A stretch of 64,000 bases of DNA from the NCBI GenBank assembly GCA_024137785.1, contig JAHRHZ010000263.1, positions 13,408,438 to 13,472,437 of the forward strand. The letters are read 5' to 3'. Under the pieces are notes generated by a model. That model worked only from the letters and a program-made list of their open reading frames with translations, was not told the DNA's origin and did no database searches. The translations under genes were made by a program, and so were the position numbers. The stretch is from Ginglymostoma cirratum (lineage: Eukaryota). This document shows positions 14,580 to 62,841 of the stretch, piece by piece (the first letter of the stretch is position 1; every line of letters starts with the position of its first letter).

Positions 14580-14607
14580 GATGTTTCGGGCCTAGACCCT
14601 TCATCAG
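14580..14607 (-). ncRNA. Minimal type I hammerhead ribozyme-like motif
   Basis: Reverse complement reads CTGATGA-A-GGGTCTAGGCCC-GAAAC-ATC: hammerhead core boxes around a stem II hairpin. Confidence 0.7.
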
Positions 14608-15985: not shown

Positions 15986-16013
15986 CTGATGAAGGGTCTA
16001 GGCCCGAAACATC
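15986..16013 (+). ncRNA. Minimal type I hammerhead ribozyme-like motif
   Basis: CTGATGA-A-GGGTCTAGGCCC-GAAAC-ATC. Confidence 0.7.
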
Positions 16014-24631: not shown

Positions 24632-24816
24632 AACAAGCAAAAGAATTGCGGATGCTGGAAATATGAAACAGAAGCAGAAGTTGCTGGAAAATCTCAGCAG
24701 GTCTGGCAGCATCTGTGGACAGAAATGAGAGTTCACTGCACCTGAAATGTTAACTCTGATTTTCTCCACAGACACAACCAGACATGCTGAAATTTTCCAG
24801 CAATTTCTATTTTTGT
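24632..24816. mobile_element. Penelope-derived hairpin element (family C)
   Basis: Inverted arms (gttgctggaaaatctcagcaggtctgg / ccagacatgctgaaattttccagcaat); TSD ttggaattagaga (24619-24631) / ttggcattagaga (24817-24829). Confidence 0.8.
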
Positions 24817-25109
24817 TTGGCATTAGAGAGCTTTTTATTGCCCTGATTGGCTGACATTTCAGTTTGCTGATTGGTTATTTGTCCCAAATGCTCCGACTGG
24901 CTCTTCAGAGAATCTGGCTCCCTGTCAAATACAGTTCCCTCTTTAGAATTTGTTTGATTAAAAATAAACCATATTTTTCTGAACTGCATTTAAATCTCTC
25001 CATGAAAAAGAAATTTCAACTTCTGTGATTTGAACATGAATTATTGCAAAATAATTTTTTCGGCACAATCTGCCAATTAAGCAGGAAGAGAAAATAGCAA
25101 AAACTGTAT

Positions 25110-34919: not shown

Positions 34920-36268
34920 CACTAGGAGCTGTCTTATGGCAAGGATCTTATGGCAAATTATTGACGTGGTTAGGAAATCGATTGATTGGCAGGGAACAGA
35001 GAGTTGGAATAATGGACTAAGTACTCAAATTAACAGGACGTGGCTAGTGGTGTCCTGCATTGATCTGTGTTGGGGCCTCAGTTAATCATAATATTCATTA
35101 CTGATCTGAATATTAGTAGAAAAAGTCGAATATCCAAATTTTCTGGTGACACAAGATCGGGTAGCATTGTAGACAGTACTAATTACAGCATAAAATTACA
35201 ACAGAATATTGATAGATTAGGTAAATATGTAAAGCTGTGGCAGATGGATTTTAATGTAAGCAAGTGTGAGGTTATCCATTTCGGACTGAGAAAGGATAGA
35301 TCAGTGTATTTTCTAGAAGGCACAAAAGTTAAATACTGTGGATGTCCAACAAGGTTTGGGGGTTCAGTTGCATAGGTCTCTAAAATGCCACAAACAGGCA
35401 CAGAAAATAGTCAAAGGAAGCTAATGGAATGCTGGCCTTCATGTCTAAGTGGCTGGAAATGGGGACACATGCATTATGATGCAGCGAAACAAAAATTGAG
35501 TTAGACCTCTTCAAATACCATGAGCAGATCTGGACACCACACCTTGGGAAGGATGGTTTGGACCTGGGGGTAGTTCAACACAAGTTTACAACGATGATAC
35601 CTGGACTTAAAGAGTTAGGATATGAGGCGACGTTAGACAAATTAGGCCTTTATTCTCCAGAACTTAGAAAGTTAAGGGGTGATCTAATTGAGGTCTTCAG
35701 GATATTAACAGGGAAAGGCAGGGTAGTTAAACTATTTCCTGATTGTCAAGTCAGAAGGCATAGTCTGAGAATTAGTGCCTGACCACTCAGGGGAGATGTT
35801 AAAAAGCACCCCTATACACAGGGAGTTTTGGAGGTTTGGAAGTTTCTTCCTCAAATAGTGATCAATGCTAATTCAATTGTTAAATTTAAAATCTAAGACA
35901 GACAAATTTTTGTTATGATGTGGAGGTGTCGGTGTGGGGCTGGGGTGGACAAAGTCAGAATTCATGGGACACCAGGTTATAGTCCAACAGGTTTATTTGA
36001 AATCACAAGCTTTCGGAGCGCTGCTCCTTGTTCAGGTGACTTTACCTGATGAAGGAACAGCACTCCAAAAGCTGGTGACTTCAAACAAAATGTTGGATTA
36101 GAACCTGGTGTCGTGTGACTTTGGAATTTTTTATTAAGCAAGGGTATCTTGGGATATGGGCCCCCAAGGCAGACAAATGGAGTTAGGCCACAGTTCAGCC
36201 ATGGTTTTATTGATTGATGGAGCTGGCTCGGAAGGCTAAAAGGCCGATTCCTGTTCCTATGTTCTTAA
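34920..36268 (+). mobile_element. Decayed CR1 LINE RT and 3' end
   Basis: ORF 35067..35375 (LGPQL..ISKFSGDT..WQMDFNVSKCEVIHFG) and ORF 35558..35782. Confidence 0.88.
35916..36122. mobile_element. Penelope-derived hairpin element (family D) inserted in a CR1
   Basis: Arms gacaccaggttatagtccaaca...tcaggtga / ttacctgatga...tgttggattagaacctggtgtc; hammerhead-like cores at 36007-36035 (-) and 36046-36075 (+). Confidence 0.85.
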
Positions 36269-36839
36269 AATTAATGATCTCCCATTGGTAAATGGCATAA
36301 TCAACTCTCTGTGAGCTCACAATTACTGGGGTATCACTCAGTCCAACTCTGCTTGGCCCTCAAACTTGAGAACTGCAGATGTGCTACAGCCTTGGCCCCA
36401 GTTATTGGGCCTTGATGTATTCCTGTGTCCTAGGTCCTGCCTGCACCCATTCCTATTACGCTCCACTTTAACTTATTCCAGAACAGGCTGGTGTACAACC
36501 ACACAAAGATGCCTAAGACTGGTGGAAGTGTGCATGACATCAAGATCCTCACCTCCTTTAAGTAGGGGGGCTATACAGCTGGGCAAAGCAGACACAGACC
36601 ATTCCTATGGCAATAGGAACACAGGAATGCGTCAGAAATCCAGCAAGAAACAGTGCACTCTGCTCTCCTCGGATGAGAAAGGTAAACTGTCACGATTCAC
36701 TGGCCGATTAAAAATATGTTTTCTGACAAAATATGGGATAGAGAAACAACAGAACACAAGATTTACATCCATTAGTTCTTCCTTCCCCCTTATGCAATCT
36801 TACATGGTTTTGTAAACCTTTAATCTATTTCAGTATTTT

Positions 36840-41276: not shown

Positions 41277-41456
41277 AAGTGTGGAGCTGGAGGAACACAG
41301 GCAGCATCAAAGGAGCAGGAAAGTTGACATTTCTGAAGAAGGGTCCTGACCCGAAACGTTAGCTTTCCTGCTCCTCCGATGCTGCCTGGCCTGCTGTGTT
41401 CCTCCAGCTTCACACTGTGTTCTCTCAGACTCCAGCATCGGCAGTTCTGGCTATTT
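41277..41456. mobile_element. Penelope-derived hairpin element (family A variant)
   Basis: Perfect 15-bp TSD cagtctttgaatcca (41262-41276 / 41457-41471); core ctgaagaagggtcctgacccgaaacgtt at 41333-41360. Confidence 0.9.
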
Positions 41457-58778: not shown

Positions 58779-59430
58779 AGAGATAACAAGGTGTAGAGCT
58801 GGATGAACACAGCAGGCCTAGCAGCATCAGAGGAGCAGGAAAGCTGACGTTTCGGGCCTAGACCCTTCTTCNNNNNNNNNNNNNNNNNNNNNNNNNNNNN
58901 NNNNNNNNNNNNNNNNNNNNNNNNNNNNNNNNNNNNNNNNNNNNNNNNNNNNNNNNNNNNNNNNNNNNNNNNNNNNNNNNNNNNNNNNNNNNNNNNNNNN
59001 NNNNNNNNNNNNNNNNNNNNNNNNNNNNNNNNNNNNNNNNNNNNNNNNNNNNNNNNNNNNNNNNNNNNNNNNNNNNNNNNNNNNNNNNNNNNNNNNNNNN
59101 NNNNNNNNNNNNNNNNNNNNNNNNNNNNNNNNNNNNNNNNNNNNNNNNNNNNNNNNNNNNNNNNNNNNNNNNNNNNNNNNNNNNNNNNNNNNNNNNNNNN
59201 NNNNNNNNNNNNNNNNNNNNNNNNNNNNNNNNNNNNNNNNNNNNNNNNNNNNNNNNNNNNNNNNNNNNNNNGACCCTTCTTCAGATGCTTCTTCAGATTT
59301 TCTGAAGAAGGGTCTAGGCCCAAAACATCAGGTTTTCCTGCTCCTCTGATGTTGCTAGGCCTGCTGTGTTCATCCAGCTCCACACCTTGTTATCTCAGAT
59401 TCTCCAGCATCAGCAGTTCCTACTATCTCT
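58779..59430. mobile_element. Penelope-derived hairpin element (family A) spanning the assembly gap
   Basis: Inverted arms on both sides of the Ns; candidate TSD tctttccacagaa / tcttttcacagaa. Confidence 0.85.
58872..59271. other. Assembly gap (400 N)
   Basis: Run of N. Confidence 1.
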
Positions 59431-61099: not shown

Positions 61100-61233
61100 T
61101 CATTTTCTGATGAAGGGTTTAGGCCCGAAACGTCAAGTTTTCCTGCTCCTATGATGCTGCTTGACCTGCTGTGTTCATCCAGCCCCATGCTTGTTATCTC
61201 GGATTCTCCAGCATCTGCAGTACCTTTTATCTC
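61100..61233 (+). mobile_element. Penelope-derived single arm (family A) with hammerhead core at 61107-61134
   Basis: ctgatgaagggtttaggcccgaaacgtc; 16-bp direct repeat tgtctatatttctttg at 61066-61081 and 61234-61249. Confidence 0.88.
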
Positions 61234-62649: not shown

Positions 62650-62841
62650 TGAAATAAAAGCACAAAGTGCTGGAGAAACTCAGCAGATTTGGTAACACCT
62701 GCGGAGACAGAAACAGAGTTAACATTGAGACAAGACTGGACTTGAGATCTTAATTGCGTTTCTCTCTGCACAGAAGCTGCCAGACCTGTGTTTCTCCAGC
62801 ACTTTCTGATTCTTTTTTCCAGCATCTGCAGCATTTTGCTT
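62650..62841. mobile_element. Penelope-derived hairpin element (family C)
   Basis: Inverted arms; perfect 13-bp TSD ttgtcaatgacag (62637-62649 / 62842-62854). Confidence 0.85.

Follow-up and report, generated by a model that had tools for sequence, protein, structure and literature searches.

The inverted repeat at positions 35915-36121 of the window (the whole stretch of DNA that was analysed, 64,000 nucleotides in length) was found to consist of two facing-away arms of one repeat, placed head-to-head, and is almost certainly one dead Penelope-like stub pair. As the best explanation, we consider it likely that such a pair represents two 5′-end copies laid down in one insertion, in which both DNA ends primed cDNAs that ran off at a capped start. 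The window element itself is an ordinary dead repeat. Its features are given below, with arm positions counted from +1, the putative transcription start, which is an A seven bases before C3 of the ribozyme core; motif positions follow the established hammerhead nomenclature.

35400..36270, plus strand: older LINE-like remnant hosting the insertion, possibly CR1/L2 by a translated motif; both flanks are collinear with locus L076 at 72-74%
35904..35915, plus strand: left-hand copy of a target-site duplication, about 11-13 bp long and decayed, deduced from the uninterrupted related LINE in L076
35915..36039, minus strand: long arm, pseudo-LTR positions +4 to +128, including the tail, which ends at the start codon of the element
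36003..36039, minus strand: the long arm's minimal type I hammerhead motif, with C3 at 36035 and G8 missing; cut predicted between 36007 and 36006
36036..36045: head-to-head junction, at which the arms overlap by 1-2 bases
36039..36121, plus strand: short arm, covering +1 to about +84 of the pseudo-LTR, without tail; the end is decayed and possibly lies at 36125
36039..36078, plus strand: the short arm's minimal hammerhead motif, with C3 at 36046, A in place of G12 at 36067 and G at position 17 (36074)
36125..36136, plus strand: right copy of the decayed target-site duplication

Comparison with the majority sequence of the repeat, designated family C, showed identity at 115 of 125 bases for the long arm (36039-35915, minus strand) and at 73 of 83 bases for the short arm (36039-36121, plus strand). 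The window hairpin is lopsided, its minus arm exceeding its plus arm by about 40 bases. The G at 36038 is ambiguous and may be either a base of the long arm or a cap-derived G of the short arm. The target-site duplication scored 7, below the cut-off of 8. Two back-to-back hammerhead cores had been claimed for the centre of this hairpin in a preliminary description, and they were located where claimed; a relaxed core scan detected 9 hammerhead-like cores in the window, and none of 20 block-shuffled versions contained any.

Both window copies of the ribozyme are broken: G8 is missing from the minus motif, and in the plus motif A replaces G12, cleavage position 17 is occupied by G and stem II contains a mismatch. 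By established hammerhead chemistry, G8, G12 and position 17 are needed for catalysis, and neither copy retains an intact catalytic core. An Rfam scan of the window gave no hammerhead match, minimal motifs seeming to score below the Rfam models, and single-strand folding gave no significant z-score for either window motif (minus motif, z -1.19 against shuffles). At the level of family C, the sequences conform to a minimal type I hammerhead, with the conserved boxes, stems I and II, an extra base before 10.1 and a palindromic stem III. The first description of stem II and of the AGCT palindrome was confirmed for the family, 15.2-16.2 being G-C in 116 of 120 cores, and the boxes CUGANGA and GAAA, which a consensus might have lacked, are kept in the family majority. 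Exact intact family C cores numbered 148 genome-wide, compared with 0 for the reversed control pattern.

The preliminary description had further read the change of all sequence outside the boxes and the palindrome as the covariation of a functional RNA structure. Six helix pairs not imposed by the scan (I.1, I.2, I.3, II.3, II.4 and 15.2-16.2), and weakly a seventh, did co-change between families A, C and D while staying paired, in a sample limited to three families (34 cores of A, 120 of C and 5 of D); MAFFT across families put the boxes out of register, so the pairs were counted on anchored positions. The co-changes support selection for a functional structure in the source elements and not in these copies, which decay freely: all 11 core bases are kept in 13 of 45 unselected arms.

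In the genome of 4.36 Gb, a first-look search with the window element returned 3,652 candidates. A 31-base mid-arm stretch had 2,439 exact matches genome-wide (reversed control, 0), and some 46,000 arms are roughly estimated, a figure resting on the presence of the exact 31-mer in 8 of 152 arms. Exact head-to-head core pairs of family C numbered 83 genome-wide, again with 0 for the reversed control. Family C is old, since its arms are only about 90.6% identical to the majority. A second subfamily (L064, L218, L250, L252 and L276) has a different stem II loop and its +1 eight bases before C3; a head-to-head search for it found 6 sites only.

A coding Penelope partner with the same terminus, sought as the preliminary description had proposed, was found for family C. 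The arms are the pseudo-LTR of an element encoding reverse transcriptase (RT) and a GIY-YIG endonuclease, found as broken full-length copies, and the termini belong to this Penelope-like element and to no DNA transposon. At locus L006 the long arm continues into an ATG and coding sequence, and the tail runs into the ORF also at L064 and L065; following the L006 coding sequence gave ten larger loci, all broken. As in Penelope-like elements, pseudo-LTRs flank the ORF, both directly (L065, arm-ORF-arm, the direct pair about 3.1 kb apart) and inverted (L062, inverted arm, direct arm and ORF). Five fragments were tested for protein domains; the one from L068 matched RVT_1 (E 4e-08), the other 4 matched nothing, and GIY-YIG was undetected by Pfam on the broken fragments themselves. 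A turtle protein carrying RVT_1 and GIY-YIG (P0028) aligned collinearly over L064, L065, L067 and L068, through residue 787-795, and this match together with RVT_1 on L068 indicates a single ORF with RT followed by GIY-YIG. The best identities of the partner fragments were to shark proteins (about 78-80%). A C-x4-C-x2-C linker, agreeing with the CX2-5CxxC linker of Neptune, was present in L063, L065 and L068. According to the main text of PMC8557442, this linker between RT and endonuclease is common to Neptune and Nematis; it fits either, and the partner appears to be a Neptune-type Penelope-like element. The 3′ ends of the arms peak at +89 and +128, leaving a one-sided tail of 30-40 bp.

Adjacent arm pairs (n = 155) were collected from four samples, two of them selected for inverted pairs; 147 were head-to-head, 8 tandem and 0 tail-to-tail. 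A long arm was combined with a short arm in 112 of 113 classed pairs, against 56.5 expected (p 1e-32), 34 pairs with an unclassed end being excluded from this table. Target duplications of 8-16 bp, mostly 10-14 bp, flanked 54 of 112 pairs and were found in 0 cases in three shuffled pairings. The junctions were 2-29 bases long and 45 among 47 were different; each pair was thus likely assembled at its own insertion. Position +1 was reached by the short arm alone in 34 pairs, by the long arm alone in 28, by both in 13 and by neither in 37. An adjacent inverted partner was present for only 30 of 71 arms and absent for 41. At L035, L046 and L055 (around position 1500), arms and short ORF-start pieces are followed by promoter-side sequence, giving complex three-part insertions.

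The starts of the arms were determined in 71 arms picked on a mid-arm motif. A templated upstream continuation was seen in 17 of them; among the other 54, 34 started at +1 to +7 (14 at +1), 18 at +8 to +33 and only 1 at the predicted cut site (+36 to +38). Some of the 20 arms starting downstream of +7 are decayed cores or members of a poorly aligning subfamily. In 36 of 41 templated family C copies, the first base of a TATA box lies 29-33 nt before +1, and the second subfamily keeps a spacing of 31 bases in 9/9. The +1 position is in a pyrimidine-A-pyrimidine context, like the initiator consensus. In family A, which is unrelated in sequence, a TATA-like box (read by eye) lies 31 nt before the A where the arms stop. 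An AATAAA follows the ribozyme at window positions 35982-35987 (minus strand), corresponding to arm positions +46 to +51. The order in retroviral LTRs is U3-R-U5, and the pseudo-LTR, with TATA upstream, a start at +1 and AATAAA, resembles it by analogy.

A set of 170 arms reaching +1 comprised 28 with templated upstream sequence, 50 ambiguous and 92 unambiguous. The base at -1 was C in 25, T in 3 and G in 0 of the templated copies; in the unambiguous arms it was C in 46, G in 35, T in 6 and A in 5. With possible tiny partner remnants dropped, G made up 21 of 31 non-C bases at -1 (p 1e-5). Whole-genome counts at -1 in a fixed context gave 32 G versus 19 A/T (p 7e-7), and the context least likely to arise by mutation of the common junction gave 15 G versus 9 A/T. 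At L140, an untemplated G was present on both arms. In family A, scoring of the extra G is confounded by the many junctions that may equally reflect re-priming at the core. Splicing to an acceptor at +1 was rejected, since the templated copies carry C or T at -1 in place of AG and the sequence preceding the extra G varies between copies. Untemplated G at full-length 5′ ends of L1 and SVA has been attributed to copying of the cap (main text of PMC3287187). From the spacing and the extra base, we regard it as quite likely that the arms are joined at a capped transcript start; a transcript beginning just 5′ of the core is the most likely reason for their stopping at that point. Terminal transferase activity at the end of an uncapped RNA is another possible source of the untemplated G. 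A capped start is also opposed by the templated C found at -1 in 46 of the 92 arms, by the 20 of 54 arms that start downstream of +7 and by the promoter of Drosophila Penelope, in which the start site lies in the pseudo-LTR and which is described as TATA-less in the main text of PMC2377424. The 41 of 71 arms that have no adjacent partner count against the pairing mechanism set out below.

Exact matches of family A far outnumber those of family C (17,856 matches and 822 head-to-head pairs), and in the window its cores occupy 14581-14607, 15986-16012, 41333-41359, 59302-59328 and 61107-61133. The 3′ ends of its arms fall at two points separated by about 33 bases, and repeated short pieces in many of its centres suggest repeated template jumps. 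The only N run in the window (58872-59271) lies exactly between two family A arms, and an N run between arms was also seen at L025, L068, L194, L210, L284 and L287; it seems that young hairpins give rise to gaps in the assembly at their own centres. Family A was found inside family C arms or ORF starts, together with mixed A-C arrangements, at L089, L132, L210, L315 and L048, suggesting that families A and C often land in each other. Two inverted pairs at 24666-24818 and 62652-62817 of the window, probably of family D, have centres without ribozyme cores.

Two-ended priming, which we hold to be reasonably probable, would proceed as follows. Both ends of one staggered DNA cut would prime reverse transcription on sense RNA, from one molecule or two, that would start at +1 and carry a cap. 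One DNA end would prime near +128 and the other near +89, each cDNA would run off at the capped RNA start, and the two cDNA 3′ ends would undergo blunt joining, joining through a microhomology of 1-3 bases, or joining with filler. The ribozyme would be copied as the front part of the RNA, the templates being uncleaved. A transcript of one pseudo-LTR could yield only stubs, and full-length copies would need read-through into a downstream pseudo-LTR. The main text of PMC11167929 reports that the protein of an Anolis element cuts and extends both strands, that two internal RT start sites bound the tail, and that in vitro ribozyme mutants insert normally, uncleaved RNA being the substrate. This supporting in vitro work concerns a Poseidon-clade element, which counts against the model for the element studied here. 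Somewhat better than an even chance is given to a broader reading, in which two-ended priming would be obligate, with an asymmetric enzyme pair, two internal starts and a capped, uncleaved sense RNA copied to its 5′ end; as part of the same reading, the shark hairpins, in their tens of thousands, would be strong-stop products mapping the transcription start of each family.

Fold-back priming would also give inverted arms: the 3′ end of the cDNA snaps back, or an antisense RNA primes itself, the second arm copies the first, and an endonuclease trims one side, leaving the tail. Antisense self-priming has been proposed for rotifer elements (main text of PMC3846280) and resolution of the tail by the endonuclease in the main text of PMC8557442, and among the shark pairs the centre is commonly short, with an overlap of 1-2 bases. 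Copying of one arm from the other would agree with the allele at +90, which is common to both arms in 35 of 46 pairs (Fisher p 0.001); the remaining 11 pairs are discordant, of which decay explains about 7 at most, and 22 would be expected if the arms were independent. A copy cannot exceed its template in length, however, and either arm may be the one that alone reaches +1 (the short arm in 34 pairs, the long arm in 28). The 13 double-complete junctions, in which two full ends have 0-2 bases between them, leave no loop, and the untemplated G on both arms of L140 likewise speaks against folding back. An antisense template predicts neither a stop at the position of the sense TATA and initiator nor an extra G. 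Fold-back priming is accordingly considered unlikely.

That the ribozyme itself sets the boundary, with self-cleavage or stalling of RT at the hammerhead fold truncating the copies and inversion following, had been implied by the preliminary description and draws on the ends of family A and C arms, which lie within a few bases of the core, and on the stem I pairing conserved between families. Truncation by the ribozyme did not hold up: cleavage takes place on the 3′ side of the core and predicts coreless arms from +37, seen in 1 of 54, whereas the arms end 5′ of the core. At +1 to +7, every helix has already been copied through, so that stalling does not account for the ends; the TATA spacing and the extra G are both left unexplained, and the normal insertion of ribozyme mutants in vitro (main text of PMC11167929) also counts against such a boundary, which appears quite improbable. 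Least credible, and given very little weight, is the idea that master hairpins are copied whole, as a non-autonomous element of a MITE-like or retrozyme-like kind. The occurrence of similar hairpins in the thousands, with target duplications, would agree with this, but the 45 different junctions among 47 and the unequal arm ends, which are not terminal inverted repeats, do not; arms within one element are hardly more alike (84.6%) than arms of different elements (84.1%), and the arms run into a retrotransposon ORF. Among the 47 sampled junctions there was no large set of copies in which an identical junction went together with shared diagnostic variants on the two arms. As specific candidates, a MITE or DNA transposon fails on the unequal ends, the varied junctions and the RT partner, and a non-LTR retrozyme fails on 8 tandem versus 147 head-to-head pairs, in a collection with two of four samples selected for inverted pairs.

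Priming from two DNA ends, the preferred explanation, has a likeness in L1 twin priming, in which two DNA ends prime two cDNAs that are joined by microhomology. The cDNAs of twin priming cover different parts of the RNA, one of them starting from the poly(A) tail, whereas both shark cDNAs would have internal starts and cover the same 5′ stretch. The extra G at full-length 5′ ends is common to the shark arms and to L1 with its cap-derived G (main text of PMC3287187). The main text on the Anolis Poseidon element PAc (PMC11167929) describes the same two internal RT starts bounding the tail, cutting and extension of both strands and an uncleaved substrate; PAc belongs to the Poseidon clade, unlike the Neptune-type element here, and that main text is silent on the 5′ junction, cap copying and strict long-short pairing.

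For endonuclease-bearing Penelope-like elements, the main texts of PMC8557442 and PMC3846280 give an insertion unit with a pseudo-LTR, an adjacent inverted 5′-truncated copy and a tail of 30-40 bp on one side, and in rotifers the pseudo-LTR carries a TATA box and an initiator-like TCACT (PMC3846280). The shark units share with these the head-to-head inverted pseudo-LTRs, the one-sided tail reaching the ORF start and the target duplication; they differ in being reduced to the two ends, with the join tied to a putative start site and an untemplated G. The published units were explained in those main texts by antisense self-priming with endonuclease trimming, unlike the start-site reading proposed here. 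Compared with the minimal type I hammerheads of metazoan Penelope-like elements in the main texts of PMC4209133 and PMC6765202, family C has the same core boxes, the extra base between 9 and 10.1, G10.1-C11.1, a palindromic 15.2-16.2, a short stem I, many families per genome and pairs on opposite strands. It differs from the hammerheads in those main texts in having AGCU and a U at position 17; the supplementary alignments may hold shark families. Animal non-LTR retrozymes (main text of 10.64898/2026.07.22.740005) are likewise short non-coding, hammerhead-bearing derivatives of Penelope pseudo-LTRs, but they are direct tandem repeats copied as units, whereas the shark arms form inverted pairs, each with a junction of its own. 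The ribozyme, the inverted pseudo-LTR and the one-sided tail are thus already published for Penelope-like elements; in a literature search covering main texts without supplements and few subscription journals, no paper was found tying the junction to the start site or the cap.

Penelope-like elements are the closest retrotransposon relatives of telomerase, and the copies described here, taken as a population, bear on the origin of the inverted ends and of the one-sided tail. The strict pairing of long with short arms and the TATA-spaced, G-marked junction offer a concrete mechanism, testable in the in vitro system already available, and speak against processing of the inserted RNA by the ribozyme. 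If true, obligate two-ended priming would explain in one scheme why the pseudo-LTRs are inverted, why the tail is one-sided and why tandem copies are needed, and would replace antisense self-priming.
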